Assembly (NCBI GenBank): GCA_944353935.1 | Contig: CALVPV010000001.1 | Span: 1-52,065, forward strand | Direction: 5' to 3' | Origin: an uncultured Clostridia bacterium | GTDB lineage: Bacteria > Bacillota > Clostridia > Christensenellales > Borkfalkiaceae | Length of the DNA stretch: 52,065 nt | Shown: positions 5,957-28,978 of the stretch, one piece after another | Layout of the letters: each line of letters starts with the position of its first letter | How positions within the stretch are numbered: position 1 is the stretch's first letter | Position numbers and translations under genes: made by a program | The notes under the pieces: model-generated | Databases searched by the model: none | Told to the model about the DNA's origin: nothing | Seen by the model: the letters and a program-made list of their open reading frames with translations, nothing else

Positions 5957-8900
5957 TCAGAGCTTGCCGAAACTTACTCCGCCTTCGGGAGCCTTATCCA
6001 TGGCGGAAAGGTTTGGGGTTATGGCTGTGTCGCCATAGCTTACAACAAGGCCGCCGTCGCGCACTATTTCGAATTTGAGCGGTGCGTCTTCGTCCGCGCC
6101 TTCTTCGCCTTCGGCGTCTTTCGCGCTCGATTCTACGGGGCGGACGCTGAACAGCGACTTTCCGTCATTGCCCACAGCAACAAGGAAGGAGAGCGTGTTG
6201 TTTTCATCCAATACCGTTACGAAGTAAGCTACTTCGCTCTCTATCTCGCTGTATACGGGTTTGCCGTTTTCGTCAAACGTGTAGCCGTAAGCCGTAAATT
6301 TAGGCATGGTGAGCTGTTCAAGCGAGAAGATATCCAAGGTGATATCGAACGCCTTGTAGCCGAGCTCGTCCACCACCTCTATCTGCCCGTCACCTTCGTC
6401 CGCATAGGGGATGAAGTACAAAAGGTCTGTCTGCCAAGGGCTGTCTTCCGCAGACGAGCGGAGAGTGAGGTCGGAACCGTCGTACATGAATATGCAGAGG
6501 ATGCTTTCGCCGTCGGGCTTGCCCATATAGAGCTGTTTGCCGGTAAATTCGATGGCGATAACAGAACTATCGGAACCGCCGAAGGCGTCGCTGAGTTCGT
6601 AGGTGCCTATCATTTCAAGGTTGCCCTCAGGGTTGCCGCTGTCGGTCTCGTACAAAAAGTACATGTTGCCGTAGCCGTCCGCCTTTACGGTATAAGTCCA
6701 CTCCTGCATGATGCCGTAGATGTCCTCATAGGACTCTATGGTGATATCGGTGAGATAATCGTAGTAAGTATATGTTTTGCCGCCGACTGTAAGGTCGCTG
6801 CCGCTGAACGTGCCGGAAAGCGCCTTTCCGCCCGCGGGCGTAAGCGTCACGCCGTCAGCCGTTATTTCCGCAACGCCGAACGCGGTGACGTTGCCGTCCT
6901 TGTCGAGCTGCCTGAAGTAGCTGTTGCCGTTGTACGTGTAAAGGTTGTAGCTGCCGAGCACTTCGGGGTCGGACAACTTTTTATAGCGCCATGCCGAACC
7001 GAGCGAAGAATACGTGGGAAGTATGACTTCGGGCTCCGACGCAAGTTGATTGTAGTAGGCGATCTGCCAATCCGTGTAGTTGACGGTATTGAGTATCATC
7101 ACGCCGTCTTCACCCACGGTGAGGTCTATGCGCGCATAATTTTCACCGTCGAAGTCATAGAACACAGCCTTGCCGGTGAGATCGGCTACAGGGGTGCCGC
7201 TCTGTTTGAAGGACGTGAAGTTGACGGTATAGCCGTCCTGCCCGTAAGTTGCGCCGCCGACAACGCTCACGGAAGCGGTGTACCATACATCACCCATGAA
7301 TATATCGGCAGTCTTGCCCTTTAAAAAGAGCTGCGAATCGTTGTACGTAGCGCCGGTGAGCAGAGTCTGTTCGTTTTCGCCGAGTTCACGCAGCGGAACG
7401 GACGCATACTGATCCGACATGAGCACGGATACATCGTACACAAAGTCGCGGCGGGATATTTCTGCAAAGTCCTTATTATAATATAATATGGAAACGCGCG
7501 TAGCCGAAGAAAATTCTTCGTAACCGTTTAAATTGTTTACCGCATACCCTGCGGACAGGTCGGTGACAACCGTTGCAAAGTATGTGCCTTCGGGCTCGCC
7601 CTGTAAAACCTGCTTGCCTTCTGCCACTTTGTAGAGCTGAGGAACGCCGAATGCGTTGAACACTATGTTGAAGGTGCCCTCTTCCTCGCTGCCTACGACG
7701 GTATCGGGATTGCTTGCGTCTATCTCCAACCCGCGGAGAACGGGGAGCATCACGCGCCCTTCTTCGGAATCATAGGGCACATAGGTGATCACAAAGTAGA
7801 GCTCGTCGTTGGTGACGGCATTGTCCTCTGCGTCGAGTTTGTAGATGAGCGGGTGCCACATGCTTACAGCCACCTGATTTTCATAGAGGGGCTTTGCATT
7901 CTCCCCCGCCACCGCTTCATACTCTTCATCGGAGAGCACTTTGTATCTGAGCGGATAACTTATGCCTACGGAGCTGCTGTACTGCTGGTAGTAATCTATA
8001 TAATTAATGAAAGTAAGTTCGGGGTCGTTTACAAGGACGGTGTTGCCGGAAAGGAAGGTGAACTGCGCGTCCCAACCGTCGCCGTAGAGCGAGAAATATG
8101 CCTCGCCGAGGGCGTCTTCATATGCCGTTCCCTTATTGATATACCCAAAGTAATTGGCAAAGTCGGGGGCTAAGCGGAAGGAAGCCGCAAGCTCGTCTTT
8201 GACCGTGATGCAGAAGTCGTCGTCAAGGATTATGTTCCATGCGTCGGACACCTCGGATTCGGTGACGTTGTTGTTGAAGCACTGTTTGCCTACGAGCACG
8301 GGAATGCTGTCGCCCGTAAAAATTATGCCGGCAAGGCTGGTGCACTGGGCAAATGCCAAAGTGCCGATAGAGCGGATGCCCGTGCCAAATATGATGGTGT
8401 TTACGCCCGAACCGTTAAACGCGAAATCGCCTATCGTGAGAAGCGAATCGGGGAAGGTGAGCTCTGTCACCGCGGCGGTGAACATGAACGCCTGGGTGCC
8501 GATGGATTCGAGCTTGTCGCCGAATTCAAGGGAATTGAGCATAGCGCAGTAATAGAACGCGTCTTCGCCTATCGTCACCACGTTTTCAAGCACGGGAATC
8601 ATCGTGAGGTTGTTGAGCGGGACTTCGTAGTCGAGCAGCTCATAGTCGTCATAGCCGGGAAGGGTCGCCGCGCCGTTTACGTCGCCCGTATATGAGCGGA
8701 ACGCCCTGTCGCCGATGTACGATACGTATTGCAGCCATTCGGGGCAAACCGCGGTACCTGTAGTGCCGTCGGTGCCGAACATGTAGCATGCTTCAAACGC
8801 AGATTCGCCTATGCGGATGAGATCTTCGGGATAGTCGAGCACGAGATTTTCAAGCGAATACGCGTAATAGAACGCGCCTTCGGCTATGTCGCGCACGCTC

Positions 8901-9835
8901 TCGGTCACGCGGACGGTGCGAAGCGTCTGCGGTATGTACAGCGACCCGTCGTCCATTTCGCTCTGGGCGATATTTTCGCCGTCCGTATAGACGCTGAACG
9001 AATAGTAGTTATCGGTATACTTCTCTGCGCCGAACACATACGCAAGGAAACGATCCTGCAGGCGGGATCCTCCGATGAAGGGAACAGTGAGCATTTCAAG
9101 GCCGCTGAGCCCTTCAAAAGCGCCGCAAGCTACAGATGTATAGCAGTCGGGAACGGTGACGGAGGTTATCTTACCCCTCACGGAATTGTTTTTGAACACC
9201 CCCTCCCCTATCGCGGAAGCAGACATCGGGAAAGTGACGGAAGAGGCGCTGCCGTTATACGCGGTGACTACGCCGTTATCGTCTATCACAAATTCCTCGT
9301 CTTCGGGGGTCGTCCACACGGCGTAAAGGGTGACGGTTTCACCCTTTGCCGCTATATTCAAAACCGGTGTGCCTGTCGGATACTGCACTGCCGCTCCCGG
9401 AGCGGTGGCAAAACCGGCAAACTCGGCGCCCTCGGGGCAGCGTTCGGGCAATGTCACACTTTCGCCGATGGCGACCTGCCCGAATTCCACGGTTTCCAAA
9501 GGCCCGTAATTCAATACAATATTATAATATTGTGAAAGTAATTTGTAGTAGAGGGTGATGTTGGCATCGGGGACGACGGTACCTTCGTAGCGCTGTGTAT
9601 ACCCGGCATCCGTCCAATAGCCTTCAAAATCCTTATTTTCCTCCGTAACGGTGGGCAGAGGATCCCCGGGGAGCCACAGGCTTTGCTGAGATTTACCGTC
9701 CTGAGAAATGAGGGTGACGGTGACGGCGTTGGGTTCATCCTCCCCTTCGTTCGTGCACGCGGCGCCTACCACAAGGCAAACCACGGCAGCCAACGCAAGC
9801 AAAATGATGAATAATTTTTTTACAATACGATTCAT
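5957..9835 (-). CDS. Large surface (lipo)protein with a Listeria-Bacteroides repeat and BspA-type leucine-rich repeats
   Basis: I prefer the ATG at 9835 (MNRIVKKLFIILLALAAVVCLVVGAAC). The N-terminal repeat reads FEGYWTDAGYTQ. There are many LRR_5-like units (IGEGVF, IAEGAFYYAYSLENLVL, IGESAFEAC, IGEDAFYYCAMLNSLEF, IGTQAF, IGDFAF, IGTLAFAQCTSL). The following ~750 aa are unassigned and look beta-rich. Confidence 0.85.
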   Translation of the reverse strand: MNRIVKKLFIILLALAAVVCLVVGAACTNEGEDEPNAVTVTLISQDGKSQQSLWLPGDPLPTVTEENKDFEGYWTDAGYTQRYEGTVVPDANITLYYKLLSQYYNIVLNYGPLETVEFGQVAIGESVTLPERCPEGAEFAGFATAPGAAVQYPTGTPVLNIAAKGETVTLYAVWTTPEDEEFVIDDNGVVTAYNGSASSVTFPMSASAIGEGVFKNNSVRGKITSVTVPDCYTSVACGAFEGLSGLEMLTVPFIGGSRLQDRFLAYVFGAEKYTDNYYSFSVYTDGENIAQSEMDDGSLYIPQTLRTVRVTESVRDIAEGAFYYAYSLENLVLDYPEDLIRIGESAFEACYMFGTDGTTGTAVCPEWLQYVSYIGDRAFRSYTGDVNGAATLPGYDDYELLDYEVPLNNLTMIPVLENVVTIGEDAFYYCAMLNSLEFGDKLESIGTQAFMFTAAVTELTFPDSLLTIGDFAFNGSGVNTIIFGTGIRSIGTLAFAQCTSLAGIIFTGDSIPVLVGKQCFNNNVTESEVSDAWNIILDDDFCITVKDELAASFRLAPDFANYFGYINKGTAYEDALGEAYFSLYGDGWDAQFTFLSGNTVLVNDPELTFINYIDYYQQYSSSVGISYPLRYKVLSDEEYEAVAGENAKPLYENQVAVSMWHPLIYKLDAEDNAVTNDELYFVITYVPYDSEEGRVMLPVLRGLEIDASNPDTVVGSEEEGTFNIVFNAFGVPQLYKVAEGKQVLQGEPEGTYFATVVTDLSAGYAVNNLNGYEEFSSATRVSILYYNKDFAEISRRDFVYDVSVLMSDQYASVPLRELGENEQTLLTGATYNDSQLFLKGKTADIFMGDVWYTASVSVVGGATYGQDGYTVNFTSFKQSGTPVADLTGKAVFYDFDGENYARIDLTVGEDGVMILNTVNYTDWQIAYYNQLASEPEVILPTYSSLGSAWRYKKLSDPEVLGSYNLYTYNGNSYFRQLDKDGNVTAFGVAEITADGVTLTPAGGKALSGTFSGSDLTVGGKTYTYYDYLTDITIESYEDIYGIMQEWTYTVKADGYGNMYFLYETDSGNPEGNLEMIGTYELSDAFGGSDSSVIAIEFTGKQLYMGKPDGESILCIFMYDGSDLTLRSSAEDSPWQTDLLYFIPYADEGDGQIEVVDELGYKAFDITLDIFSLEQLTMPKFTAYGYTFDENGKPVYSEIESEVAYFVTVLDENNTLSFLVAVGNDGKSLFSVRPVESSAKDAEGEEGADEDAPLKFEIVRDGGLVVSYGDTAITPNLSAMDKAPEGGVSFGKL

Positions 9836-9956
9836 AAGTACCTCGCACAGAAAAAGCAGCCGTCGGCTTAAAACTGCCTGCAATATGCGATCGCATCAGC
9901 TTTACAAAGCCGCACAAACATATTTCCGCGCCAAACTTTTGCTTTTATACCTAACT

Positions 9957-9986
9957 ATTATACAGATTCTGTCACGCCAAAGTCAA
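9957..9986 (-). promoter_or_regulatory. Predicted sigma-70-type promoter of the LRR/ABC gene string
   Basis: Minus strand reads TTGACT-18 nt-TATAAT, about 120 nt upstream of the ATG at 9835. Confidence 0.4.
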
Positions 9987-10304
9987 ATAATTCTTTACAA
10001 CTTTTCAAATTTATCCATTTGAATAATATATATAATATAGAAATGAAAATTATGTGAGCAAAACCGTCACCGCAACATCACGGGGCGCATTTATAATTAT
10101 TCATTTATGCATTTTTGCCGTATAATTTTGCACAGACTGCAAACGTTCGGCATATAAACCGTAAAAACAAGGTAAAATTTATGATGAGCAGTTGATAAAA
10201 ATACTTTTTATGCTTTGAATTATACAGTTTATGCCGCAACTGTTGAAAAATCTAAAAAACATGGTAGAATTTTAAATGTAGACAAGCTGTTTCCCTCCTT
10301 CACA

Positions 10305-10353
10305 TAAAAAAAGCCGGTGTACGTTTGAAAGCACGCGTACACCGGCTTTTTTT
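10305..10353. terminator. Bidirectional intrinsic terminator
   Basis: A 12-bp stem AGCCGGTGTACG/CGTACACCGGCT is flanked by an A-run on one side and a T-run on the other. Confidence 0.6.
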
Positions 10354-10450
10354 ACCGAGATCTGCACGAAAACGGCCGCCGCCCGCACAAAAAGCACGAA
10401 AGAATTTTTCCGTGATATGAAAAAGCCGCCTCAAATTGCAGAGGATTTTT

Positions 10451-10486
10451 CCACAAAAAGGGAAAAAGGGCGCAATATGCGCCCTT
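10451..10486 (-). terminator. Intrinsic terminator (copy 2 of a duplicated hairpin)
   Basis: Minus strand reads AAGGGCGCATATTGCGCCCTT followed by TTTCCCTTTTTGTGG. Confidence 0.55.
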
Positions 10487-10611
10487 ATCAAAGATTCGGG
10501 TTTAGTGGATAAAAATGCTACCTTCCAAACCGAGCAGAAGGGTTGCAGATTGCGTACTTTCAAATGCGAGGGCGAGGGAGTTTACTAAGACGTAAATGAC
10601 CGAAGCCCGAG

Positions 10612-10641
10612 ACATGAAGAAAGGGCGCAAGATGCGCCCTT
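10612..10641 (-). terminator. Terminator-like hairpin directly after tRNA-Gly (copy 1, weak U-tail)
   Basis: Minus strand reads AAGGGCGCATCTTGCGCCCTT followed by TCTTCATG. Including the GATA/TTT flanks, about 25 of 28 positions match the hairpin at 10466-10486. Confidence 0.45.
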
Positions 10642-10651
10642 ATCCTCTGTT

Positions 10652-10726
10652 TGGAGCAGGTGACGGGAGTCGGACCCGCCAAAATCAGCTTGGGAAGCTG
10701 ACGCCATACCGCTAGGCGACACCTGC
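10652..10726 (-). tRNA. tRNA-Gly (anticodon CCC), CCA encoded
   Basis: Hand-folded cloverleaf. Acceptor GCAGGTG/CACCTGC, anticodon stem TCAGC/GCTGA, loop TTCCCAA, T-stem GCGGG/CCCGT, discriminator T then CCA. The T-loop reads TCCGACT, which puts C at position 55. Confidence 0.85.
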
Positions 10727-11000
10727 AAAACTGTCTTTAATAATATACCATAGTCCGGCAAAAAAGAAAAGCGTTTACGCGACGAATTTTTAAATTTATT
10801 TGAGCAACTTTTGTCCCTTTATGCGCCATTACGGCACAACTTACATGGAAAGGCCGTATTTGACCGCCTCAATCACAAAAAGATGTTTGCCTGTTATGGT
10901 ATATTGTTATAATTTATTATACCGAATAGCCTCGTTTTACAGTGCATGCGGTTAAAACTATAAATATTTTAAATTTTTTTAAAAAACACCTTAAAATCAT

Positions 11001-11050: not shown

Positions 11051-11127
11051 TGAGGTGTAGCGCAGCTTGGTAGCGCGTCTGGTTAGGGACCAGAAGGTCG
11101 TGGGTTCAAGTCCCGTCACCTCAACCA
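11051..11127 (+). tRNA. tRNA-Pro-like gene with anticodon AGG, CCA encoded
   Basis: Hand-folded cloverleaf. Acceptor TGAGGTG/CACCTCA (U1-A72), D-arm TAGCGCAGCTTGGTAGCGC (Pro-like), anticodon stem TCTGG/CCAGA, loop TTAGGGA (A34 G35 G36 G37), T-arm GTGGG-TTCAAGT-CCCGT, then A73 and CCA. Confidence 0.8.
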
Positions 11128-17441: not shown

Positions 17442-18422
17442 TCAACCGAAAAATATTTGCGAACATACAAGGCGATAGGCGCTGTCCTGGGTGAGTTCCC
17501 CGCACTTTACGGAGGCTATTGCCGAATAGATTGCCGAACAGAGCCGTTCGGTGCGCGCGACCCCCAGCCTTTTTGCCTGCTCCCTGCTGCGCTTTACCAC
17601 GAACTCCTTCATCCCGAGCAGCTTAGAAAGCTCGGCATCGCTCAGGCGGGAATTTGCCGCCGTTGAAAGATTCCTGAAATAGGACAGCATGCTGTTCATG
17701 ACGGACATGCCGTCCATCCCGCGGGAGATAAGTTCGTCGGCGATCTCGTAAAACCTTGAATGATTGCCTGCGGCAACAGCGTTAGTCATTTCATATATGC
17801 GGTAGTCGGAATCCTTATAGACGAGCTCATCTGCCTCCTGCACGGTGAGCGTGCCGCACCCGCCCTTGTACTCTATTATCTTTTGCGTCTCTATGGACAC
17901 GCGCGACATATCGCACAGGCAGTAGCGCGCGATGTTCATGCACACTTCCGCATCGGCGGCGACGCCCGATCGCTTGAGCGTAAGGTATATCCAGCGGGTG
18001 ACCTCTTCCTCATCCGCCTTTCCGCAATCGACATAGCAGATCCCCGCCTTGCGCCTTAGATCCGCCGCGCCTTTTTTTGCCTGAGCGTTCACGATGACGA
18101 GCACGGCGGTTTCCGGGAAAGCGGAAAAAAACGGCTTTAAGTATTTTTCGTAATCCTGTTCGGTCGGATAAAAGCCCGTGACCTTGACGACACGCTTTTC
18201 CGCCATGAACGGGAAGGCTGAGAGCGCGTCCGTGAGGCGGGATATAGCCCCGCCTTTGAGCGTCTCCCCGTCAAAGGATGTAAAATTGAGCTCGGGCATC
18301 TGCAGGTAGGCGTTTTTTATCATCTTTTCCGCATTGTGCAAAAAGTAGGCGTCCTCGCCCTGCAAAAGGAATATGCCCCCTCCGCCCTGCGCTATGAAAT
18401 TTTTAAGTTCGGTAAACTTCAT
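17442..18422 (-). CDS. holA: DNA polymerase III delta subunit
   Basis: I prefer the ATG at 18422 (AGAGGGG SD), giving MKFTELKNFIAQGGGGIFLLQGEDAYFL. It directly follows comEC, as in the Firmicutes comE-holA arrangement. Confidence 0.75.
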   Translation of the reverse strand: MKFTELKNFIAQGGGGIFLLQGEDAYFLHNAEKMIKNAYLQMPELNFTSFDGETLKGGAISRLTDALSAFPFMAEKRVVKVTGFYPTEQDYEKYLKPFFSAFPETAVLVIVNAQAKKGAADLRRKAGICYVDCGKADEEEVTRWIYLTLKRSGVAADAEVCMNIARYCLCDMSRVSIETQKIIEYKGGCGTLTVQEADELVYKDSDYRIYEMTNAVAAGNHSRFYEIADELISRGMDGMSVMNSMLSYFRNLSTAANSRLSDAELSKLLGMKEFVVKRSREQAKRLGVARTERLCSAIYSAIASVKCGELTQDSAYRLVCSQIFFG

Positions 18423-18453
18423 AAATGCCCCTCTTGCAAGCGTCAAATAAAAA

Positions 18454-20565
18454 TCAAGCCGGCACGAGCACGCCCTTGCGGCGAGTGTTGCCCGATGAAA
18501 ATATTTTACCATCTTCGGCGATAAATTGCAAGTCGCCGCAGTCGTATAAGTTATAGCCGAAGACGCTTTCTTCAAAATAGACGCATGTGCCGAACGACGC
18601 GCCGCCTGCGGTCGATGCCGCAAACAGAAGGTCGCAGCTTTCTATGCCAACCTCTTCGCCGCAACTTATGCCTATACTTATGCCGGCAGCGTTAACGAGC
18701 ACGTCATACCCGTCGATATATGTAAAGTCCATGCCTGCGACCGTGAACTGCTTTTCATAGTGCAGCGTCCTGCCGGGATAGGGCTGGATGGCATAATTTG
18801 CAAAATATACATACACTTCGCCGCAGTCCACGCCGGAGCGTATGCAGGCGGAGGCACTTTCGTCGCCGCCGAGTATGACGAGCGAGTCCGGCTCCGTTCC
18901 GCAAGCAGAGAGCATGGAAGAAATGTCGTATGAGGACGGCTCTTCCGAAATGACGAGCACGCTGCCCTGCGGCGAGGATATGAGCACGGCATAACTGCCG
19001 CCGTAATACGACGACGCGGTTATCCTGACGCCGCCGGCGGGGACATAGTTTTTAAATGCCATTCCCGCGGCTATGACGGCAGCGAGCACCGCCACGGCGA
19101 GCAGCCTGAACCTGACGCGCATGTTCACGTGGCCGGACAGGATGTACGCCGCAAAAAAGTACGGCAGGGCGAACACTCCGAAGTCGAACCCGCTTATCAA
19201 TGCACGCTCTGCATGGGCAACGACTATGAAGGATGTGACGGCCTCCAAGGGCACGGCAAACACCGCAAAGAGCACAGACGCTGCGGGGCTTACGATAAAT
19301 GCCACAAGCGTGACGGCAAACTGTATGGTGAATATGCCAGACAAGAGAGGCACAAAGACTATATTGAGCACGAGCGAAGCCCAGCTGACATAGCCGAAAC
19401 AGGATATAAGTATGGGAAAGGTGGCTATCTGGGAAGAGATAGTCATTGCGGCGGCAGACGCTATGGAGCGCGGCACCTTTATTTTTTGCAGCGCCCGCGT
19501 GATGTTCTTACAGAACAGCGCTATGCCCGCCACCGCCGCCACTGAGAGCTGAAAACCGACCGATATCACATTCAACGGATTGACGAGCAGGACGGCGACA
19601 AAGGAGAGCCCGAGGGAAGAGAGCATATCGTACTTTCCCGCAGAGAGTTTGACCGCTTCGGCGACGGCACACATTATGGCAGCGCGCACAGCCGAAAGGG
19701 TAAAACCGCATATCCCCGTATAGAAGAACACGAGCGCGACGCTTAAAAGCGCCACGGGGATGCGCCCGAGCCGCAGCTTTTTAAGGATGAAACTGACAAA
19801 GCCGTACACGAGCACAATGTGCATGCCGGACACGGCAAAGACGTGCGCCACGCCGCCGTAGCGGAATGTGTCCATCGTGGACGTCTCTATATACTCTATA
19901 TTGCCCGTGAACATGGCATAGGCTATCGCGGCCGTATCCCGGGGCAAATTTTCATAATACAGCGAGCGTACCGCCGAATTTATAGACCCGAACAGCGAAA
20001 AGCCGTATTCGGAAGACAGCTTGCCGGAGGGATACGCCATATAGCGGACATCCTCCAAAAGGCGGGAAGAATTTCCGCCGCCGTAGGCGAACGGCACGTC
20101 TGTATAGACCGTGCAATCAAACGAAACGTTGTACCCGACGTCGCAGAATTGCCCGTAATTTTCGTCCAGATAGACGATCATCGACCCTTCTACCCGCTCA
20201 CCTTCGGCGATTATATCGTCTATCTTTATATACTCCCCGCTCTGCGTGAACGATTTTTCCGTAACGACACCACCGACCGAATAAGAGGCGCCGTCCGTGA
20301 GCGACGTTGCGGAATGCTGCTCCAGTTTGAAATACACCCCGAGCGCCCCGTAGGCAAAGAGCGCCGCGCCGAGCACGGAAAAGACGATGCCGGCGACGTT
20401 GTGCCTTATTATAAAAAATATCATGGCTGCCGCCGCTGCGGGGACTATGGCGATCAGCCACCAATAGGGGAAGCTGTTATACGCCGAAAGGTAAGAAAAA
20501 CCTGCGCCCGCACCTATCGCAAACGCAAGCACGACCGCAGGACGGATATTGACCGGCTTTTTCAT
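18454..20565 (-). CDS. comEC: DNA internalisation competence protein ComEC/Rec2
   Basis: About 10 TM segments, the competence-domain motif GGVAHVFAVSGMHIVLV, and a C-terminal beta-lactamase-like part. The start is uncertain (ATG at 20565 or TTG at 20574). Confidence 0.85.
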   Translation of the reverse strand: MKKPVNIRPAVVLAFAIGAGAGFSYLSAYNSFPYWWLIAIVPAAAAAMIFFIIRHNVAGIVFSVLGAALFAYGALGVYFKLEQHSATSLTDGASYSVGGVVTEKSFTQSGEYIKIDDIIAEGERVEGSMIVYLDENYGQFCDVGYNVSFDCTVYTDVPFAYGGGNSSRLLEDVRYMAYPSGKLSSEYGFSLFGSINSAVRSLYYENLPRDTAAIAYAMFTGNIEYIETSTMDTFRYGGVAHVFAVSGMHIVLVYGFVSFILKKLRLGRIPVALLSVALVFFYTGICGFTLSAVRAAIMCAVAEAVKLSAGKYDMLSSLGLSFVAVLLVNPLNVISVGFQLSVAAVAGIALFCKNITRALQKIKVPRSIASAAAMTISSQIATFPILISCFGYVSWASLVLNIVFVPLLSGIFTIQFAVTLVAFIVSPAASVLFAVFAVPLEAVTSFIVVAHAERALISGFDFGVFALPYFFAAYILSGHVNMRVRFRLLAVAVLAAVIAAGMAFKNYVPAGGVRITASSYYGGSYAVLISSPQGSVLVISEEPSSYDISSMLSACGTEPDSLVILGGDESASACIRSGVDCGEVYVYFANYAIQPYPGRTLHYEKQFTVAGMDFTYIDGYDVLVNAAGISIGISCGEEVGIESCDLLFAASTAGGASFGTCVYFEESVFGYNLYDCGDLQFIAEDGKIFSSGNTRRKGVLVPA

Positions 20566-20634
20566 CTGCAGCAAAATATCCGACGGGCCGGGGCGGCATA
20601 CGCCGTACCCCGGCCGCGGAAGACCTTTGTATTT

Positions 20635-23600
20635 TTATGTCAAAGAAATTTTATCCGATATGCTGCGCACGAAGATGCCCTTCGACGCGCCGTAGTCTAT
20701 GCACAAATTGATGTACGAAGCAAACCTGTCGGACAGCCGAGGCACCTTCAATTCACGCTGCACCGCCACTACGAGCTCATCGGAATACATGCTCACCTTG
20801 TTTAAAAGTATGCTCTTTACGAGCGATATTATATCGTACGGCGAATAGTCCGATTCCGAAGTGCGCAGCTGCACCCCGTCTTCCACGCGGTAACGGTCGA
20901 ACGACGAAAATTTATCCGAACGGAATATACTGCGCACGCCGGCGATATCCGCAGACTGATAGCCGCATCCCTGTATCAGGGAATTTATCTTTGCGTCCAG
21001 CTTTACGCCGTGCTTTGTAAGCCCGAAGGCAGCGAGCACCCGCTTTAAAAGGAACTGCGCGGATATCGGCTCTTCCGCGGAGACGACCGCCTTTATCACC
21101 TTAATTATCTCCGCGTCGTGTTCGCCCGAAAGTATATACTGGGCATCGACAGCCTTTTCGGCAAATTTTGCCGCCTTGTACGGCTTTTTAAAGCCGGTAG
21201 CCACCGCCTTGCCGCCCGAACACAGCTTGTCGAGGTATTCCTTTATCTTTTTTATCTCCCTTTTGGGATTATTGAAAAAGTTTATGGAATACAGCCTTAT
21301 GACGTTCCAGTTGTTGCGCCTTAAAGTCTGCACCTGCATCACCGTGCGGTCTTTTACGGAGAAATGGCTTTCACCGTCGCATAAAATAGCGAGTATAAAG
21401 TTGTGCTTGTTCTTCGGATCCACGACGGCGACGTCTATCTTAAAGTCGGATACGCCCACGTCGCAGCGGCAGTCATAGCCATAGTTTGACAGTTCCTCCG
21501 CCACGTACTTGCCTATGCCCGTCTTGTTTATTATCATTTCGTCGCTCTTGACGGCGATGCTCGTGCGGCCCTTTTCGGCAAATTCCAAAAAGGCTTTGAG
21601 CCCCGCCACGCCGCGGGAATTGGTGCGCGAAAGATCTATCATGGAATAGCGCATAGAAGAGAAGATCATCATCTCTTCCCTTGCGCGCGACACTGCCACG
21701 TTGAGCCTGCGCCATCCGCCGTACTGATTGAGCGGGCCGAAGTTCAAAGAGACCTTTCCCATCCTATCCGGACCGTAGCAGACGGAGAACAGTATGACGT
21801 CCCTTTCATCGCCCTGAACGTTTTCAAGGTTCTTGACGAACAGCGGCTCGTCACGCTCGTATGCCGCCTCTTCGAGCCCCTTTTCCTGTATGGCCTTAGT
21901 GAGCAGTTTTTCTATATAGTTCTGCTGAGGGGTGGAGAAAGTGACGATGCCCATGCTGGAGCGGCGCAATTTTTCGTCCCTGAGCCTTCTTATCACCTCT
22001 TCAACGAGCGCCTCCGCCTCCTGTTTATTGCACTTGGTGAATCCCCTGTCGTACACGCCGTCCTTTATATAGACCATCTTTACCTTGCTGTCGAGCGCGT
22101 CCGGCGAAGGGAACGTACAGAGCTTGCCCGAATAGTACATTATGTTGGAGAAGGCGATGAGGCTTTCGTGCTTGCTCCTGTAATGCCACAAGAGGTGCAT
22201 CTGGGGCATACCGAGCGACAGGCAGTCGTCCAGCACGCTGTCCAGATCTTCCGCCTCCATCTCCTCTTCATCCTGCCCGAGCGCCATGAAGAACGTCGTG
22301 GGCGACAGCTGCTTGGGGTCGCCGACTATGACGGCGCTCTTTGCCCTTGCAAGCGAGGGAACGGCTTCGCAGGTGGGCATCTGAGATGCCTCGTCGAATA
22401 TGACGATATCAAAGAGGTCGGGTTCGGAGGCAAGGTACTGCGAAACGGTGAACGGGCTCATGAGCATGCACGGCGCGACAGTTTTGAGCAGCTGAGGAGT
22501 CTCCGCGAACAGCGACCTTAAATTGAGGCGCTTTACGTTGCCGCTCGTCTGGCGGCGGAACGCCATCAGTTCGAGCGCGAGCGGGCCCTCGGTCTCCTGC
22601 GAGGGAAGGCGGGCGATCAGGTCGTGGCGTATCTTTGCCTTTGTGGCGGCGGCAAATTCTTCCGTGAGCATGGCAAACTTTGCCGCGCTTTCGTCAAGCA
22701 GGCTTGCCGAAAATTTAGACAGCTCCTCGTCTGCGGGGATGTTCGTCTGCACAAAGTTGCGGAAGACGTTTTTGCGGAAAGAGGACAGTATCTGCTCCCC
22801 GCTTATTTTCCCGCTCTCCATTGCGTCCGTTATAAACGTCAGCCCCATGGAGTTGAGTTCCTTTGCCGTGTTTTTATATGAACACCAGCCCGCGAGCATG
22901 TCTATGTTGTCTATGAGCGCGCCGCACTTGGAGGAATAGTATTCGAATATATCTTCGTCCGTGCCGAAGGACTTGTCGGCTTCGGTCACCTCGTTGAAAT
23001 ACTCCTTTGCGGAGATGAACGCGCGCGCCGCGGCTATAACGCCGTTGAGGAGAGGCTTGGCATAGCCGCCCGTTATATGGTTGCACACGCTGTTGAACGC
23101 GTCCGCGTTATAGTCCATAAAGACCTGCGAACACAGCGTATGAAGGTCGTTGAGCGGCTTTAAAAAGAGTTCCCTCTTTTTATCGTTTATGCCGCCGAAG
23201 CCCATAAAGTTCTGCGAAAGTGCGGTATTGTTTACTATCCTCTCCCTCGCCTGCCACAGCTCGTACGCGCGTTTTACCCATTCGAGCTCCTCCTTTTCCG
23301 GTATGTGCGCCTTTGCGCACTTGTTCAGGCGCTTTATTACGGCGAGCACCACGCGGGAAGAACGGTAATTTTCGCCCCAATTTTCGAGCTCGCTTTCAAG
23401 GTCGGGGGCAAATTTATCTATATCGGGCAGCGAATTGAACCTTGTGAACCACAGTTTGGATACGTTGTCGTACATGACGTTGGCATTGTAGAACTTGTAG
23501 AACTGCCCCTCGTCGCATGTGAAAAAGGTGTCCAGGGCGCCGTCGCGCAATGTAGTGGCGATCCTTATGAAGCCTTCGAGCTTGCGGGCGGTAAAAGTGC

Positions 23601-26262
23601 TTATCTTTTGATTGAACGTATCCAAAAAGAGCCCGAGGTAATTTTTAAGGTGTTTGAGCTCGGCAAGCACCACCTCCGCGGCGCACAGCACGGCGTTTTT
23701 GACTTCGTCCGTGCACTCGGTGAGGTTGACGTTTTCAAAGGGCGAACGGTACACGCCGCCGCATTCCTTTGCCGCTATCTGCGCCTTTACGAGCATCTTT
23801 TCACAATTTTCCAGCCTCTCCTTTGTAAGGCTGTCGTAAAAGGTGCTCTCTATATTGACGAGCTCGGGAGCATTCTTGTTTTGCAGGTAGTACAATATGC
23901 CCTCGTACACGGACACGCCCAGCCTGCGCCTTTTGTGCAGCGCATTGTACGGCCTTGCGAGCGCGTCGCGCGTTTCGGCTATCTCTTTCCCCTCGCGGAG
24001 GAAAGCCTCTTCGGTATTTTCGTCCTTTAAAGACAGAGTGTTTTCTATATCCTTTATGACCGCGGCCTTATCCGCCGACTTGCCTGAGGAGAACTCCATG
24101 CAGAATTCGCCTATGCCTATCTCGTTCAGTCGCTTTTTTACCACGGAGAGGGCGGCCTGTTTTTCCGCGACGAAGAGCACGCGCTTGCCTGCGTCCACGG
24201 CGTTGGCTATCATGTTGGTTATCGTCTGGCTCTTGCCCGTTCCGGGAGGGCCGTGAAGCACGAACGTCGTCCCCTTGGCGGATTCGGCTATCGCGGAAAA
24301 CTGAGAGCTGTCCGAAGGAAGGGGCACGAGCACGTCGCAGGGGTCTATGTTATCTTCTGCTTCGCCCGCAAGTTTATTTTCGGGCAGTTTGTTGGAATTG
24401 GAAAGAAGGCTGGCTATGAGCGGATTGTTTTTATAGCGCGAGATGTTGTTTTTTACGTCGCTCCACATGGCGTAGCGGGCAAAAGTAAACTGTGCGCAGT
24501 ATACGTCTTCCGTGACTTCCCACCCTTTGAGATCGGCCGTCTTTGCGCGGAAGAGCGCGAGCATCTCCGCAACGGAGAGCCCTTTGCCCTCCATCCCGCG
24601 TATATCTATGCCGAATTCCTGCTTTAAAAATTCAAGCAGCGTGGTGTTTACGGTGACGTCTTCACCCTTTTCCATGGTGACGCCCTGCTGTTTGGTGCGG
24701 CGCAGCCTTATAGGCATGAGCGCTATGGGCGCATACTTGAATTCGCGCTCGTCGTCGTGTTTCCACTTCAAAAACCCGAGCGTAAGGCAGAGCGTGTTCG
24801 CGCCCACCTCCTCTTCCGCGGTACGCGCCTTTCTTATGAGCGAAGACGAATTTTCCGAAAGGGCGGACGCGCCCTCATAGGAACGGAGGATGCCGGAGGA
24901 CATCTCTATGTCGATCAGCTCTTTGAGCGCGCGCACGCCCGGGCTGCCGCCGAAATATGCGGCGTCCTTTATAGGCGTGAGGTTGGGCAGTATACTGAAT
25001 TTATCGCCGCTCTCCAGCCCGCCCGCAAAGGACGCGAGGTCGGCGGTGACCAGATGTATGCAGTCGTGCCTGTACCTGAAATTTAAAAGATTGTTCTTTA
25101 AAGAGAGATCCAGCAGGCGGCGCTGCCAGGTCTTTTCCTTGGAGGCTCCCTTTTCAAGAGAATATTTTGCGGCGTCTATGATCTCGCCCGGCTTTTGGTC
25201 GTAGGAGAACTGCGCCTCGCCCAAAAGCTCGTACCTGCCGCCCTGCTTTACCTTTATGGGTATGGAATACACTCCGCCGATGCGGCAGCGCTTTATATCC
25301 ACGCAAATTTCGTATTCGCCGCGCCTCAACGCGGAAGAAAAGTGAGATTCGCTCGTCGTAAAGCTGGCGTTTTTATGAGAGAACAGATCGGCAACGTCAA
25401 ACAGTGCAAGGTTGTTGACGCCGTCCTGTACGTATTTTTCTATGACGGACATATCGTCCTGCGTGGTCACGGTAAAGCAGCTTTCATACAGCCATACGCC
25501 CGCGGCGACGCGCTCCCTGCCTATGACTATGACGGGATTGAGCTTTGCCGCTTCCAGGCAGGAGGCGTACAGGAGAGCCATTTCCAGCGGGGTGGCGGCT
25601 TTGGAAGATATGACCTTTGTTATGCCGCCGGCGCTGACGGGGCTGTCGAGCGGGGGCTGAGCGACAGCCTCCACGTTCTGATTGCGCAATGCAGCGTATA
25701 TGGCTGCGGCCGCACCGCGCACCGCGTTGCGGTCATTGCCCGAATACCCGCTCCATTCCGAAGAAAAGCCCCACGTTTTAAGCTGCAGGCCGGCTTCGGC
25801 AAGTATCTTTTGGCAATCGGCTATCCTGGGGCGAACCAAAGAAGCGAGCATCTCCACATTGCCGGAGAGCCCGCCCCAGAAATCTATGGGGAGGCAGGTG
25901 ACGCTTGCGGAAAGTTCGCACACCTTTACCTTGCCGGAAGTGACGGCAATGTTTACGGTGCAGTTTTCCGGCTCTTCAAGTTCGGCAAGATACTTGGGAT
26001 TTAGTATCTTATCTACGGTGACCTCTACGCTGCTCTCCGGCGGGATGGCGGAAATTTCTGCCGTTTTGGGCAATATAAGTTCCGTGCTGCCGCTGACGGA
26101 CACGGTGAGCGACTCTGCGGCGCTCTCCCCCCTGTTGTACAGCCTGAACGCCGTGAACAGCGGCATGCGGCAATAATAGGTCGCGTAGCTGACCGTATCG
26201 AGAAGTTCGCCTTCGAGCTCAATGGTCTCGGCGAGTTGTTTTGATTTTTTATTCGTTGCCAT
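20635..26262 (-). CDS. Giant SF1 (Upf1/DNA2-like) helicase with a DUF4011-like region, a Vsr/DUF559-like endonuclease fold and a DUF3320-like tail (Hhe-like)
   Basis: 1,875 aa. Helicase and flanking motifs: WQRRLLDLSLKNNLLNF, GANTLCLTLGFLKWK, GPPGTGKSQT (aa 671-680), VIFDEASQM (1287-1295), VIVGDPKQLSPT, WHYRSKHESLIAFSN, NVQGDERDVILFS and NVAVSRAREE. The endonuclease-like region reads DFKIDVAVVDP..ILAILCDGESHF, and the tail reads EPISAQFLLKRVLAAFGL. Confidence 0.85.
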   Translation of the reverse strand: MATNKKSKQLAETIELEGELLDTVSYATYYCRMPLFTAFRLYNRGESAAESLTVSVSGSTELILPKTAEISAIPPESSVEVTVDKILNPKYLAELEEPENCTVNIAVTSGKVKVCELSASVTCLPIDFWGGLSGNVEMLASLVRPRIADCQKILAEAGLQLKTWGFSSEWSGYSGNDRNAVRGAAAAIYAALRNQNVEAVAQPPLDSPVSAGGITKVISSKAATPLEMALLYASCLEAAKLNPVIVIGRERVAAGVWLYESCFTVTTQDDMSVIEKYVQDGVNNLALFDVADLFSHKNASFTTSESHFSSALRRGEYEICVDIKRCRIGGVYSIPIKVKQGGRYELLGEAQFSYDQKPGEIIDAAKYSLEKGASKEKTWQRRLLDLSLKNNLLNFRYRHDCIHLVTADLASFAGGLESGDKFSILPNLTPIKDAAYFGGSPGVRALKELIDIEMSSGILRSYEGASALSENSSSLIRKARTAEEEVGANTLCLTLGFLKWKHDDEREFKYAPIALMPIRLRRTKQQGVTMEKGEDVTVNTTLLEFLKQEFGIDIRGMEGKGLSVAEMLALFRAKTADLKGWEVTEDVYCAQFTFARYAMWSDVKNNISRYKNNPLIASLLSNSNKLPENKLAGEAEDNIDPCDVLVPLPSDSSQFSAIAESAKGTTFVLHGPPGTGKSQTITNMIANAVDAGKRVLFVAEKQAALSVVKKRLNEIGIGEFCMEFSSGKSADKAAVIKDIENTLSLKDENTEEAFLREGKEIAETRDALARPYNALHKRRRLGVSVYEGILYYLQNKNAPELVNIESTFYDSLTKERLENCEKMLVKAQIAAKECGGVYRSPFENVNLTECTDEVKNAVLCAAEVVLAELKHLKNYLGLFLDTFNQKISTFTARKLEGFIRIATTLRDGALDTFFTCDEGQFYKFYNANVMYDNVSKLWFTRFNSLPDIDKFAPDLESELENWGENYRSSRVVLAVIKRLNKCAKAHIPEKEELEWVKRAYELWQARERIVNNTALSQNFMGFGGINDKKRELFLKPLNDLHTLCSQVFMDYNADAFNSVCNHITGGYAKPLLNGVIAAARAFISAKEYFNEVTEADKSFGTDEDIFEYYSSKCGALIDNIDMLAGWCSYKNTAKELNSMGLTFITDAMESGKISGEQILSSFRKNVFRNFVQTNIPADEELSKFSASLLDESAAKFAMLTEEFAAATKAKIRHDLIARLPSQETEGPLALELMAFRRQTSGNVKRLNLRSLFAETPQLLKTVAPCMLMSPFTVSQYLASEPDLFDIVIFDEASQMPTCEAVPSLARAKSAVIVGDPKQLSPTTFFMALGQDEEEMEAEDLDSVLDDCLSLGMPQMHLLWHYRSKHESLIAFSNIMYYSGKLCTFPSPDALDSKVKMVYIKDGVYDRGFTKCNKQEAEALVEEVIRRLRDEKLRRSSMGIVTFSTPQQNYIEKLLTKAIQEKGLEEAAYERDEPLFVKNLENVQGDERDVILFSVCYGPDRMGKVSLNFGPLNQYGGWRRLNVAVSRAREEMMIFSSMRYSMIDLSRTNSRGVAGLKAFLEFAEKGRTSIAVKSDEMIINKTGIGKYVAEELSNYGYDCRCDVGVSDFKIDVAVVDPKNKHNFILAILCDGESHFSVKDRTVMQVQTLRRNNWNVIRLYSINFFNNPKREIKKIKEYLDKLCSGGKAVATGFKKPYKAAKFAEKAVDAQYILSGEHDAEIIKVIKAVVSAEEPISAQFLLKRVLAAFGLTKHGVKLDAKINSLIQGCGYQSADIAGVRSIFRSDKFSSFDRYRVEDGVQLRTSESDYSPYDIISLVKSILLNKVSMYSDELVVAVQRELKVPRLSDRFASYINLCIDYGASKGIFVRSISDKISLT

Positions 26263-26293: not shown

Positions 26294-26323
26294 ATTATAC
26301 ACCATATATCGGCGTCACCGCAA
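26294..26323 (-). promoter_or_regulatory. Predicted own promoter of the giant helicase gene
   Basis: Minus strand reads TTGCGG-18 nt-TATAAT, about 30 nt upstream of the ATG at 26262. Confidence 0.4.
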
Positions 26324-26467: not shown

Positions 26468-26498
26468 TTAAAAACGCCGCCCGCGGCGGCATTTTTAA
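26468..26498. terminator. Intrinsic terminator after helD
   Basis: AAAAACGCCGCCCGCGGCGGCATTTTT, a perfect GC stem with an A-run on one side and a T-run on the other. Confidence 0.7.
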
Positions 26499-26533: not shown

Positions 26534-28906
26534 CTAACGCACGACGGCGAGCGCCTTGAGCGCACGGGTGTACGCGATGTATTTTTCATTGTCGCTCATA
26601 TCCGAATCGACGACGGCGACGGCGGTAAATTCCAGCCCCTTGCTTTCGTATACCGTCATAAGGTTTATGCGCGTCTTGGAGATGTTGCCCGTTTCGCGTA
26701 TGATATTATAATTTTTGCGCGAAAATTCCGCAAGGCGGGCTTCGGAAGTAATTACCGCCTTCAGCCCCTTTACCCCGCTGAGCCAGCCCGTCACCTTGCG
26801 CGGCTGAAGGTAGACTATCTCCGACCCGTCGCAGCCTATAGACTGCATGTCTATGCCGAGCTCGCCCGACACGAAATCGACTATCTGGTTGGTGTTGCGG
26901 TAATTTTGATTGAGCGTATATATGTCCCTTTCCACCACAGTCCAATCCGCGAGCCCGCGATGAGGCGTTATGTTCTGTTTGAGGTCGCCGAACACGTTGA
27001 AACGCGCCCTTTCGTTGACCGATTTGAGCACCTGATATTCCCCTTGTGAGATATCCTGCCCCTCGTCCACAAACACGAACGAATGCTTGGGGGAGAGGTC
27101 ATATCCCAGTTTGCATAGAAGCATGCACATGGCATATACGTCCGACGGATACAGCTTACCCGCGGGCACGCCGTATTTTTTGCGGTATTTTTTGAGCGTT
27201 TCGCCGTAAAAGAAGCGCGCCACGTCCACGCCGCTTTCGCATTTGCCTATGGAGACGAGGTTGCTTTCACCGCGCAGCACGTCGGCAAAATCGTACGCGG
27301 CGGCAAACAGGTCGGCTATCTCTTTGACATAGCCGGCAACGGCTTCTGCCTCTTTTTTCAGTTCCCTGCGCTTTTCTATGCGCTCGGCATAGGTGAGCAC
27401 TTCGGCGCCGCCCACGTTTATGCGGTAGCGCATCAGGTCGGAAATTTCCTTATCCACGGCGGCAGAGAGCGCGGCGAGGTCGGCGACGGCGTCGGCGCAC
27501 ACCTTTTCCCCGTGGCGGCGGACGTGCCGCATCGCCTTGTAAAAGGAGAGCAGTTGCCTGTAAAAAAAGCCGTATGTGCCCATCCTCGGGTCGTTTTTAC
27601 TGAGCGTGAGAAATTCGGCTATGTCGCCGACGCTGTTAAAAAGCAGCCTGAACGGCTTTGTGTAATACAGCCCCCCGCCCGCCTTTTCCTTTATCTCCCC
27701 GAGGACGCATCTGCGCACGCGGATACTTGAATTTTTTATCTTTTCGTAGAGTTCGTTCTGCACGGCGCACCTTTTAAGCACCTCTTCCGCCATGCCAAAG
27801 CATTCTTCCGAAGCGAACATCCCGCGCGCGCCGTCGTATATCTTTGCCAGCTTCTTTTCCACGTCGGAAATAAATGCCTGCGAATAGATATACGCAAGGT
27901 AACTTTCGGGCGGGCGTTCGGTACGCTCTATGCGCCCCTCAAGGTCTATCCCCTGGCTTGAAAGCAGGGTGAGGAAATAGCGTTCTATGGTACACGTCTT
28001 GACCTTTTCAAGTTCAAGGACGGTCGAAAGTTCGTCTATGAAAGAATTGAACGAATCGGACGGCGTTATAACGAGGACGTCGCGCGGGCGTACGCCTTCA
28101 TTGTTGTACATGATGTACGACAGCCTGTGCAGCATTATCATCGTCTTGCCGCTGCCGGCGATGCCCTGGACGACAAAGCGGGCGTCTTCGGGCAGAGTGA
28201 TTATCTCGTACTGCTTTTCCTGTATGGTGTCTATTATGTCGGTGATGCCGCTCTTTTCTTTGCGGCTCTTTATCACTTCGCGGAGGAACGGGTCAAAGAT
28301 GATCTCTTCGTCCCTGCCGCCTATCTCTTCGGCGGAAAGGTAATCCTTTACCGAGAGATATTCGTTCCTGAAATCGACCACCTTGCCGCTCTTTGTGCGT
28401 ATTGCCCTGCGAAGAACGAGCTTGTAGTTAAAGTCGTTTATTTTAAAAGAAATGCGGCTCTTTTGATAGTATCTCCTTGCAAGCGGAGCGCGCCAATCGA
28501 CTATTTCGAGCCCCTCGTCGCCGCGCTTGCCTATATAGTAGCTGTTATAGCCGTCCTTGTCGTCCTCCACATCCATCCTGGCAAAGTAGGGCTCGTCGAA
28601 AAACGGTTTGTAAGTTTCTATGCGTGCACGCGCGGAGGAGATGCGCGCCTTGAGCTCCACTACCTTTTTGTAGCTCTCGGCATTGTAGTCGAGGTCGGAC
28701 ATCACGGCGGCGATCTCTCTCTTCGCCTCCTCTATGGCAGCTTTCAGCTTGTTGATGTAGATATAGCGCAGCATGGACATCACGGCGTTTATATGCCTGT
28801 CTTCGCAAACCGCCTGCTTATCTGCGTCCAAAAGATCCAAAAAGAACTGCTTATCCGGTTCCTTGTGCGGATCTAAAATTTTTTTGATGGTTTTGATATC
28901 TGCCAT
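26534..28906 (-). CDS. helD: HelD-type (helicase IV-like) UvrD-family SF1 helicase
   Basis: I prefer the ATG at 28906 (MADIKTIKKIL). HelD N-terminal signature: PYFARMDV...YYIGKRG...IVDWRAPLARRYY. Further motifs: TIQEKQYEII, VVQGIAGSGKT, FVFVDEGQD, FGDLKQNI, NYRNTNQIV and YESKGLEFTAV. Confidence 0.85.
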   Translation of the reverse strand: MADIKTIKKILDPHKEPDKQFFLDLLDADKQAVCEDRHINAVMSMLRYIYINKLKAAIEEAKREIAAVMSDLDYNAESYKKVVELKARISSARARIETYKPFFDEPYFARMDVEDDKDGYNSYYIGKRGDEGLEIVDWRAPLARRYYQKSRISFKINDFNYKLVLRRAIRTKSGKVVDFRNEYLSVKDYLSAEEIGGRDEEIIFDPFLREVIKSRKEKSGITDIIDTIQEKQYEIITLPEDARFVVQGIAGSGKTMIMLHRLSYIMYNNEGVRPRDVLVITPSDSFNSFIDELSTVLELEKVKTCTIERYFLTLLSSQGIDLEGRIERTERPPESYLAYIYSQAFISDVEKKLAKIYDGARGMFASEECFGMAEEVLKRCAVQNELYEKIKNSSIRVRRCVLGEIKEKAGGGLYYTKPFRLLFNSVGDIAEFLTLSKNDPRMGTYGFFYRQLLSFYKAMRHVRRHGEKVCADAVADLAALSAAVDKEISDLMRYRINVGGAEVLTYAERIEKRRELKKEAEAVAGYVKEIADLFAAAYDFADVLRGESNLVSIGKCESGVDVARFFYGETLKKYRKKYGVPAGKLYPSDVYAMCMLLCKLGYDLSPKHSFVFVDEGQDISQGEYQVLKSVNERARFNVFGDLKQNITPHRGLADWTVVERDIYTLNQNYRNTNQIVDFVSGELGIDMQSIGCDGSEIVYLQPRKVTGWLSGVKGLKAVITSEARLAEFSRKNYNIIRETGNISKTRINLMTVYESKGLEFTAVAVVDSDMSDNEKYIAYTRALKALAVVR

Positions 28907-28949
28907 GCGAGCCCCGGTTTTTTGCTGATGCGCAAAGTGTCGTTGTTTT

Positions 28950-28978
28950 ATTATAACACGGCATTCAAAAAAAATCAA
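28950..28978 (-). promoter_or_regulatory. Predicted helD promoter
   Basis: Minus strand reads TTGATT-17 nt-TATAAT, about 45 nt upstream of the ATG at 28906. Confidence 0.4.

Follow-up and report, generated by a model that had tools for sequence, protein, structure and literature searches.

Is the large stand-alone helicase-nuclease gene carried by an uncultured Clostridia bacterium a mobile immunity gene lodged among housekeeping genes, or is it an established part of the chromosome? The gene lies at positions 20635-26262 of the reverse strand in a 52,065-nucleotide (nt) stretch of contig CALVPV010000001.1 (assembly GCA_944353935.1; the whole of this stretch is hereafter the window), where it encodes a product of 1875 amino acids (aa) with no second long open reading frame (ORF) in the same span. 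An initial annotation, made from the letters of the DNA, had called it an Hhe-type candidate immunity gene with an unplaced N-terminal module and had proposed that it was inserted between helD and comEC-holA. Comparison with curated families, structural models and related genomes instead points to a divergent, just sub-threshold member of the ProA / PADLOC PDC-S37 family of single-gene helicase-nucleases, and to an old, conserved chromosomal gene rather than an inserted island.

We compared the focal protein with the curated models for both candidate families. The NCBIfam equivalog 'anti-phage protein ProA' (NF058533.1) returned 1466.7 bits, 33 below its curated cutoff of 1500, and profile positions 1-1707 of 1903 aligned to aa 25-1681, the alignment starting at the very N-terminus. 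The PADLOC candidate PDC-S37 matched as a full-length single gene (925.7 bits; aa 377-1861 against profile positions 11-1535 of 1550), a match judged without a curated threshold, as none was given with the PADLOC search. By contrast, the NCBIfam equivalog for Hhe (NF042953.1) reached 651.5 bits against a cutoff of 2000 and covered aa 970-1689 only, and PADLOC Hhe gave 449.8 bits over aa 1117-1681 only. We therefore rejected an Hhe identity: the Hhe matches are low and partial with both resources, and those to ProA/PDC-S37 are far higher and run nearly end to end. The Hhe-type call of the initial annotation thus failed on both comparisons (NCBIfam Hhe 651 against 2000; PADLOC Hhe 450 against 926 for PDC-S37), while its broader placement of the gene in a defence-annotated family combining a helicase with a Vsr-like nuclease held, with ProA/PDC-S37 as the best matches. 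Hhe, reportedly described by Gao et al. in 2020, is likewise a single gene with DUF4011, a Upf1-like superfamily 1 (SF1) helicase and a Vsr-like nuclease domain; however, only the C-terminal half of the focal protein aligns to the Hhe profile, and the 375-aa N-terminal module was not aligned by that profile here.

Scores across relatives place the protein at the edge of ProA. Its close relatives P0127 and P0131 scored 1461 and 1406 bits and more distant relatives 1511-2282 bits; those full-length relatives with the N-terminal module that were tested were bona fide ProA (2096-2282 bits). A Klebsiella plasmid protein (WP_064360768.1) scored 2225 bits on ProA and 1183 bits on PDC-S37, and the two labels therefore denote the same family. 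The C-terminal tail of the focal protein also aligns with canonical ProA members. It is a borderline new member of an already named family. With ProA/PDC-S37 it shares the single-gene unit, Leu as the commonest residue before (C/L)DG, and the order of modules from end to end (sandwich plus putative transglutaminase-like, DUF4011, split SF1, MTES_1575, DUF3320/winged-helix tail). It differs from ProA in falling 33 bits short of the equivalog cutoff, in a loop after DG that is 3 aa shorter, in an N-terminal core without the Cys/His pair (a state found in a minority branch, parts of which pass the cutoff) and in context, being chromosomal, syntenic and core-like where the examined Klebsiella plasmid copy is flanked by insertion sequences (IS) and relatives occur in 557 plasmid records. 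The gene and its modules are as follows.

20635..26262 (-): complete coding sequence of the ProA/PDC-S37 family, 1875 aa (ORF and translation; PDC-S37 925.7 bits; ProA NF058533 1466.7 bits)
25888..26223 (-): predicted N-terminal beta-sandwich domain, aa 14-125 (AlphaFold2 strands over aa 14-123; Foldseek matches to CARDB, PDE-delta and RbmA-type sandwiches)
25222..25887 (-): predicted transglutaminase-like alpha/beta core without the catalytic Cys and His, aa 126-347 (alignment, Foldseek, sub-threshold Transglut_core in relatives)
24625..25119 (-): DUF4011 domain, aa 382-546 (Pfam E = 9.9e-29; profile positions 1-158 of 158)
24121..24312 (-): first part of the helicase core, with Walker A (Pfam AAA_11, PDB chain matches, motif)
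22417..24120 (-): insertion of ~570 aa between Walker A and motif II, aa 715-1282 (AAA_11 split in two)
21643..22416 (-): helicase motifs II-VI, aa 1283-1540, Upf1/Sen1/IGHMBP2-like (C-terminal part of AAA_11, AAA_12; UPF1, SEN1 and SMUBP-2 chains)
21235..21507 (-): MTES_1575 (Vsr/DUF559-like) nuclease-fold domain, aa 1586-1676 (Pfam 64.2 bits against a cutoff of 38.2; match to structure 3hrl)
20638..21165 (-): DUF3320 and tandem winged-helix tail, aa 1700-1875 (DUF3320 23.3/25.9 bits; winged-helix matches to cullin WHB, ESCRT-II and kleisin JetB)

We then asked how the gene is distributed. Scanning one genome per GTDB species yielded 116 stretches encoding a relative, from which 80 loci were kept. 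Every one of these (80/80) carried an orthologue of 49-91% identity, full-length wherever the contig allows, and all came from uncultured Clostridia assigned to Candidatus Coproplasma or labelled Christensenella/Christensenellaceae, representing at least 80 species; all 8 named Candidatus Coproplasma species carry an orthologue. Protein length was ~1870-1877 aa in most of the orthologue clusters listed. Upstream sequence exceeded 3 kb at 60 loci; at 54 of them a helD-like gene lay no more than 4 kb upstream (median gap 190 bp), and many also had comEC-holA-DAC-DUF1015-aspartokinase downstream; the order helD-gene-comEC recurs across species at 49-91% identity. One lineage (67% identity) has other genes downstream, again housekeeping ones (DUF898, dapB, dapA, asd), and keeps the guaB-guaA-helD-gene block. 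Metagenome contigs were also sampled by helD, to avoid selecting on the focal gene itself, and in all of the helD-anchored loci long enough to test (21/21; helD 55-84% identity) the focal gene stood directly downstream. The abutment of helD and comEC that an insertion predicts where the gene is absent was seen in no sampled relative.

Rates of change gave the same picture. Identity between orthologues tracked that of the neighbouring genes (Spearman rho 0.88 for helD, 0.94 for DAC and 0.85 for aspartokinase) and averaged 24 points above comEC and 13 points above holA. Against the closest species, nonsynonymous divergence (dN) was 0.059 for the focal gene, equal to that of aspartokinase, with helD at 0.11, holA at 0.15 and comEC at 0.22. 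The ratio to synonymous divergence (dN/dS) was 0.045-0.076 over 1,875 codons, an approximate value since dS is saturated (>1), the ranking by dN being the robust part. G+C content (0.52-0.56) was the same as in the flanks, no integrase, transposase, repeat or tRNA was found at the gene borders, and no mobile or defence genes were found nearby. These observations show that the gene is vertically inherited and under strong purifying selection in a Candidatus Coproplasma / Christensenellales-like clade. Patchy presence, empty sites, mobility genes and odd composition, the marks of a mobile island or recent insertion, were all lacking; synteny with core-like conservation, which the initial annotation had itself named as the outcome that would refute its insertion between helD and comEC-holA, was found in at least 80 species and at all 21 helD-anchored loci.

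The wider family behaves differently. Relatives covering the N-terminal module occurred in 557 plasmid records (244 from Klebsiella, 108 from Ralstonia and 45 from Acinetobacter, plus rhizobia and others), and the examined Klebsiella copy sits alone between IS110, IS5 and IS3 transposases. The family is nearly absent from phage records (3 records). The family at large is therefore mobile, and the focal branch fixed. The next relative without the Cys/His pair, P0127 (a cluster of 160 members), is chromosomal and lies among housekeeping genes, but not beside helD. Fixation of a DUF4011 gene has been described elsewhere: in Pseudomonas aeruginosa such a gene is a core gene flanking the defence hotspot cDHS1 (PMC10250203). 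Like the focal gene it encodes a large DUF4011 protein and is a conserved core gene rather than a variable defence gene; it differs in phylum and genomic context, and the likeness covers DUF4011 and core status.

What, then, is the N-terminal module? No Pfam model matched residues 1-378. A HMMER search with aa 1-378 of 1.84 billion cluster representatives recovered 1,420 relatives at E <= 1e-3, of which 779 reached E <= 1e-10; these are counts of 50%-identity clusters, and 1,420 is a lower bound. In nearly all full-length matches the module stands at the N-terminus of a protein of 1,850-2,300 aa. A second homologue search, queried with the N-terminal domain, returned mostly truncated fragments that were used only as alignment rows. 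The first ~375 aa had been described as unplaced and unusual; that description has to be given up, as the ProA profile aligns from its position 1 and at least 1,420 clusters carry the module, and the region is the standard ProA N-terminal module.

Structure prediction and a Foldseek search over this region, as the initial annotation had proposed, returned a sandwich followed by a putative transglutaminase-like core. The AlphaFold2 model, built from 26 sequences, had a mean predicted local distance difference test (pLDDT) score of 86.6 and a predicted template modelling score of 0.82. Against the PDB, Foldseek ranked transglutaminase 2, factor XIII, protein 4.2 and transglutaminase 3 at the top (E = 2.4e-4, with only ~116 columns covered), and generic beta-sandwich domains ranked below them. 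The Pfam model Transglut_core gave sub-threshold matches in two relatives (16.4-17.8 bits against a cutoff of 23) and no match in the focal protein. Of 84 full-length relatives aligned with MAFFT, 60 showed G-[TN]-C-[LIM]-D ... G-H-[AIV]-F-x-G-x-W-L ... D-D, the Cys/His/Asp signature that a transglutaminase-like or papain-like core would be expected to have. Both the Cys and the His are missing from the focal protein and from 20 others, among them every one of its orthologues, and the Asp is kept; these proteins read ATPLE and GRERVA where relatives have G-T/N-C-L-D and G-H-A-F, and the focal clade has Pro225 and Arg251 at the Cys and His positions. Four members without the pair nonetheless pass the ProA cutoff (1511-1629 bits). 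The faint transglutaminase-like pattern without Cys or His noted earlier was therefore borne out, and loss of the putative catalytic pair is what sets the focal module apart.

The nuclease-fold domain had raised a similar doubt. A model of the C-terminal region (pLDDT 80.8) matched the DUF559 structure 3hrl with a template modelling score of 0.70, normalised by target length, and a root-mean-square deviation of 3.6 Å. In DUF559 motifs a Glu is expected before x-D-G. In the focal protein Leu1627 directly precedes C1628-D1629-G1630, so that the acidic residue, and with it the complete catalytic set, is missing. The same position is Leu in 51 of the 84 relatives and Glu in 4, and D1610, D1629 and D1638 are near-invariant among them and kept in the focal protein. 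Within the clade, identity is highest in the nuclease-fold domain (87%), followed by the helicase core (82-85%; motifs II-VI 82%) and the N-terminal module (60-67%); because of this highest conservation the domain is constrained and not decaying. The Leu pointed out before CDG is thus real, but it is the majority state of the family and not a local oddity, and it lies in the domain under the strongest constraint in the clade.

In the helicase core, Walker A (GPPGTGKSQT) occupies aa 671-680, computed as nt 24223-24252, and motif II (IFDEASQ) aa 1288-1294, ~610 aa further on, with the Pfam match to AAA_11 split in two pieces. The intervening insertion (aa 715-1282) is 66% conserved within the clade. 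The later motifs VIVGDPKQLSPT, WHYRSKHESLIAFSN, NVQGDERDVILFS and NVAVSRAREE were found in the translation, as were the DUF4011, Vsr-like and DUF3320 strings quoted earlier. AAA_11 scored 64.9 bits and AAA_12 (aa 1346-1536) 57 bits, each against a cutoff of 27, which identifies a Upf1-like SF1 helicase, and none of the helicase motifs varies among the 84 aligned relatives. The nearest PDB chains by sequence were UPF1, SEN1 and SMUBP-2 (IGHMBP2; E = 1e-8 to 1e-5). The likeness to these eukaryotic Upf1-like SF1B helicases comprises core motifs I-VI and is confined to the core: they are without DUF4011, the nuclease domain and the N-terminal module, and compared with them the ~570-aa insertion is specific to the bacterial family. 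The ORF, motif strings and residue positions of the initial annotation were all present in the translation, and Pfam returned its domain architecture (DUF4011, split SF1 core, MTES_1575 and DUF3320). For the DUF3320-like C-terminus this agreement is partial, as the model reached 25.9 bits with the C-terminal fragment alone but 23.3 bits in the whole protein, against a cutoff of 25.

The gene also appears to be transcribed on its own. The following elements delimit it on either side.

26294..26323 (-): predicted promoter of the focal gene, TTGCGG, 18-nt spacer and TATAAT, followed by a purine-rich AAGAGG/AAGGAAA ribosome-binding region (sequence)
26475..26488 (-): predicted intrinsic terminator of the upstream helD-like gene, parting two transcription units (sequence)
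20586..20615 (-): GC-rich hairpin GGCCGGGG...CCCCGGCC 3' of the stop codon, with only a weak T tract (read from the sequence)
26534..28978 (-): HelD-like UvrD-family helicase, the conserved upstream neighbour (HelD_BACSU 108 bits against a cutoff of 419)

Neither TTGC and GTATAAT nor the spacing between them varies among 9 species; the remaining intergenic sequence is unalignable. Because of the helD terminator, the gene's own conserved promoter and the 3' hairpin, we read the focal gene as an independent, conserved transcription unit with a predicted sigma-A-type promoter, in agreement with the promoter and flanking hairpins proposed initially (TTGCGG-N18-TATAAT; 26475-26488; 20586-20615). 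The HelD-like neighbour is a syntenic partner. As a second defence component it was rejected: its PADLOC matches were generic UvrD-motif ones, a terminator and promoter intervene, and canonical ProA and P0127 are without this partner. The upstream 'helD' is itself only HelD-like, the HelR models also falling far under their cutoffs; it is nevertheless co-inherited with the focal gene across the clade.

How might the protein work? We favour, with a probability of roughly 0.55, a single-protein surveillance helicase-nuclease, fixed in the chromosome and acting in the manner of ProA, with its N-terminal module reduced to a non-catalytic sensor or regulator, a function drawn from family membership and domain logic. 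The protein would be a stand-alone, ATP-driven nucleic-acid surveillance enzyme whose DUF4011 and helicase modules load onto and translocate along single-stranded nucleic acid of an invading phage or plasmid. Its winged-helix tail would hold DNA as the Vsr-like domain nicks or cleaves, and the sandwich and pseudo-transglutaminase module might act as a non-catalytic sensor or autoinhibitory binding module. Such a protein would serve as a chromosomally fixed innate guard and not as a mobile defence cassette. Several observations weigh against this. Presence in every sampled genome, conserved synteny and housekeeping-like rates are atypical of defence genes; the canonical Vsr/DUF559 Glu is Leu, making nuclease activity only putative; and the Cys/His pair kept by most relatives is lost here, so that no step depending on it can work. 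The ProA score also lies under the NCBI equivalog cutoff, and the anti-phage activity of the family is taken solely from the name of model NF058533.1; a partial literature search turned up no ProA defence paper. E. coli genomes searched with the Klebsiella gene for an annotated ProA gave no match, and the protein collection gave no names for 10 representative relatives.

A possible alternative, which we hold only tentatively, is that a ProA-derived helicase-nuclease was fixed in this lineage, lost its role in phage defence and now serves genome maintenance, for instance by clearing R-loops, replication conflicts or transcription complexes that have stalled, in a pathway shared with the neighbouring HelD-like motor that recycles RNA polymerase. 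Much of the distribution would fit this: the gene occurs in at least 80 species, every one of the 8 named Coproplasma species among them, and at all 21 testable helD-anchored loci, and a helD-like gene stays within 4 kb upstream in 54/60 loci even where the downstream genes differ. So would a dN equal to that of aspartokinase and below those of helD, holA and comEC, an identity that tracks the neighbours (rho 0.85-0.94), the lack of mobile or defence genes nearby and the lost putative catalytic Cys/His. The closest solved helicase cores (UPF1, SEN1, IGHMBP2) act on RNA or RNA-DNA substrates, and the core DUF4011 gene of P. aeruginosa offers a precedent (PMC10250203). Yet a terminator and a separate promoter stand between helD and the focal gene, P0127 is not beside helD and the partner is missing elsewhere in the family, which loosens the proposed link to HelD; the whole architecture, nuclease domain included, is kept as in defence-annotated ProA, and some defence genes are core in their species. 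More speculative still, a member of the mobile, defence-annotated ProA family may have been captured as a vertically inherited core gene throughout a clade of gut Clostridia, lost its catalytic pair and now perform housekeeping nucleic-acid surveillance at transcription-replication conflicts or R-loops alongside the HelD-like motor. If true, this would exemplify the domestication of a defence gene for genome maintenance, or the opposite course, and would bear on an ancestral cellular role of DUF4011 helicases. Two further explanations are contradicted by the data. An Hhe-type stand-alone immunity gene recently inserted between helD and comEC would account for the match of Hhe models to the C-terminal half and for a monocistronic gene with hairpins on both sides, but is highly improbable given an Hhe score of 651 bits against 2000 over aa 970-1689 only, the higher and nearly end-to-end ProA/PDC-S37 matches, a G+C content like that of the flanks, borders free of integrase, transposase, repeat and tRNA, and a helD-gene-comEC order that holds across species with no helD-comEC abutment. 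That the gene is a decaying, functionless remnant, as the loss of both Cys and His from the transglutaminase-like motif, Leu at position 1627 and the loop 3 aa shorter after DG might suggest, is scarcely credible for a protein of ~1870-1877 aa in most orthologue clusters listed, with dN/dS ~0.05 over 1,875 codons, invariant helicase motifs, a conserved promoter and a nuclease-like domain that is its most conserved part.

In annotation the label should read ProA-like (PDC-S37) and not Hhe, and counts of horizontally acquired islands should leave the gene out. Now that the N-terminal module, the nuclease residue and the island have each been accounted for or refuted, interest centres on the evolutionary state, core-like fixation together with Cys/His loss. 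One family here offers a natural contrast between a canonical, IS-flanked Klebsiella plasmid copy, with most canonical relatives retaining Cys/His, and a fixed branch that is without the pair, evolves at a housekeeping rate and lies beside a helD-like gene. This contrast could reveal what the N-terminal module does, and whether DUF4011 helicase-nucleases have cellular roles beyond phage defence. Practical impact is limited for now because the hosts are uncultured gut Clostridia.

Some loci of the clade depart in detail from the arrangement in the window. In one sub-lineage (L031, L061, L068-L070 and L077) ~3.7 kb separate helD from the ProA-like gene, at ~6300-10000 in locus coordinates, compared with ~100-300 bp elsewhere. 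At L032, L051, L071, L073, L075 and L079 no helD-like gene was present in the upstream sequence available (~6.8-10 kb); L073 does have holA, DAC, DUF1015 and aspartokinase downstream, but inverted, which suggests a local rearrangement. At L011, near position 10001 (P0010-P0012, 1934 aa), some orthologues carry an insertion of ~58 aa right after the start codon and others do not; the inserted DNA, as seen in the upstream alignment, suggests an Ala/Pro/Lys-rich sequence.

In the window itself, the neighbours named initially were recovered, with the HelD-like helicase upstream and comEC and holA downstream, followed by a DAC-domain gene, DUF1015 and aspartokinase. As called mechanically, the holA (17442-18623) and comEC (18454-20574) ORFs, both on the (-) strand, overlap by 170 nt, and the comEC ORF opens with a TTG and has an ATG 9 nt further on (20565-20563); holA and comEC probably both start downstream of the listed positions. 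Further large ORFs lie at 5957-9883 (-; 1308 aa) and 1439-4258 (-; 939 aa). ARAGORN called a tRNA-Gly(CCC) and a tRNA-Pro with the unusual anticodon AGG at 10652-10726 (-) and 11051-11127 (+), and these lie at the window's only strongly AT-rich kilobase (10001-11000), where G+C content is 0.39 compared with ~0.52 elsewhere.

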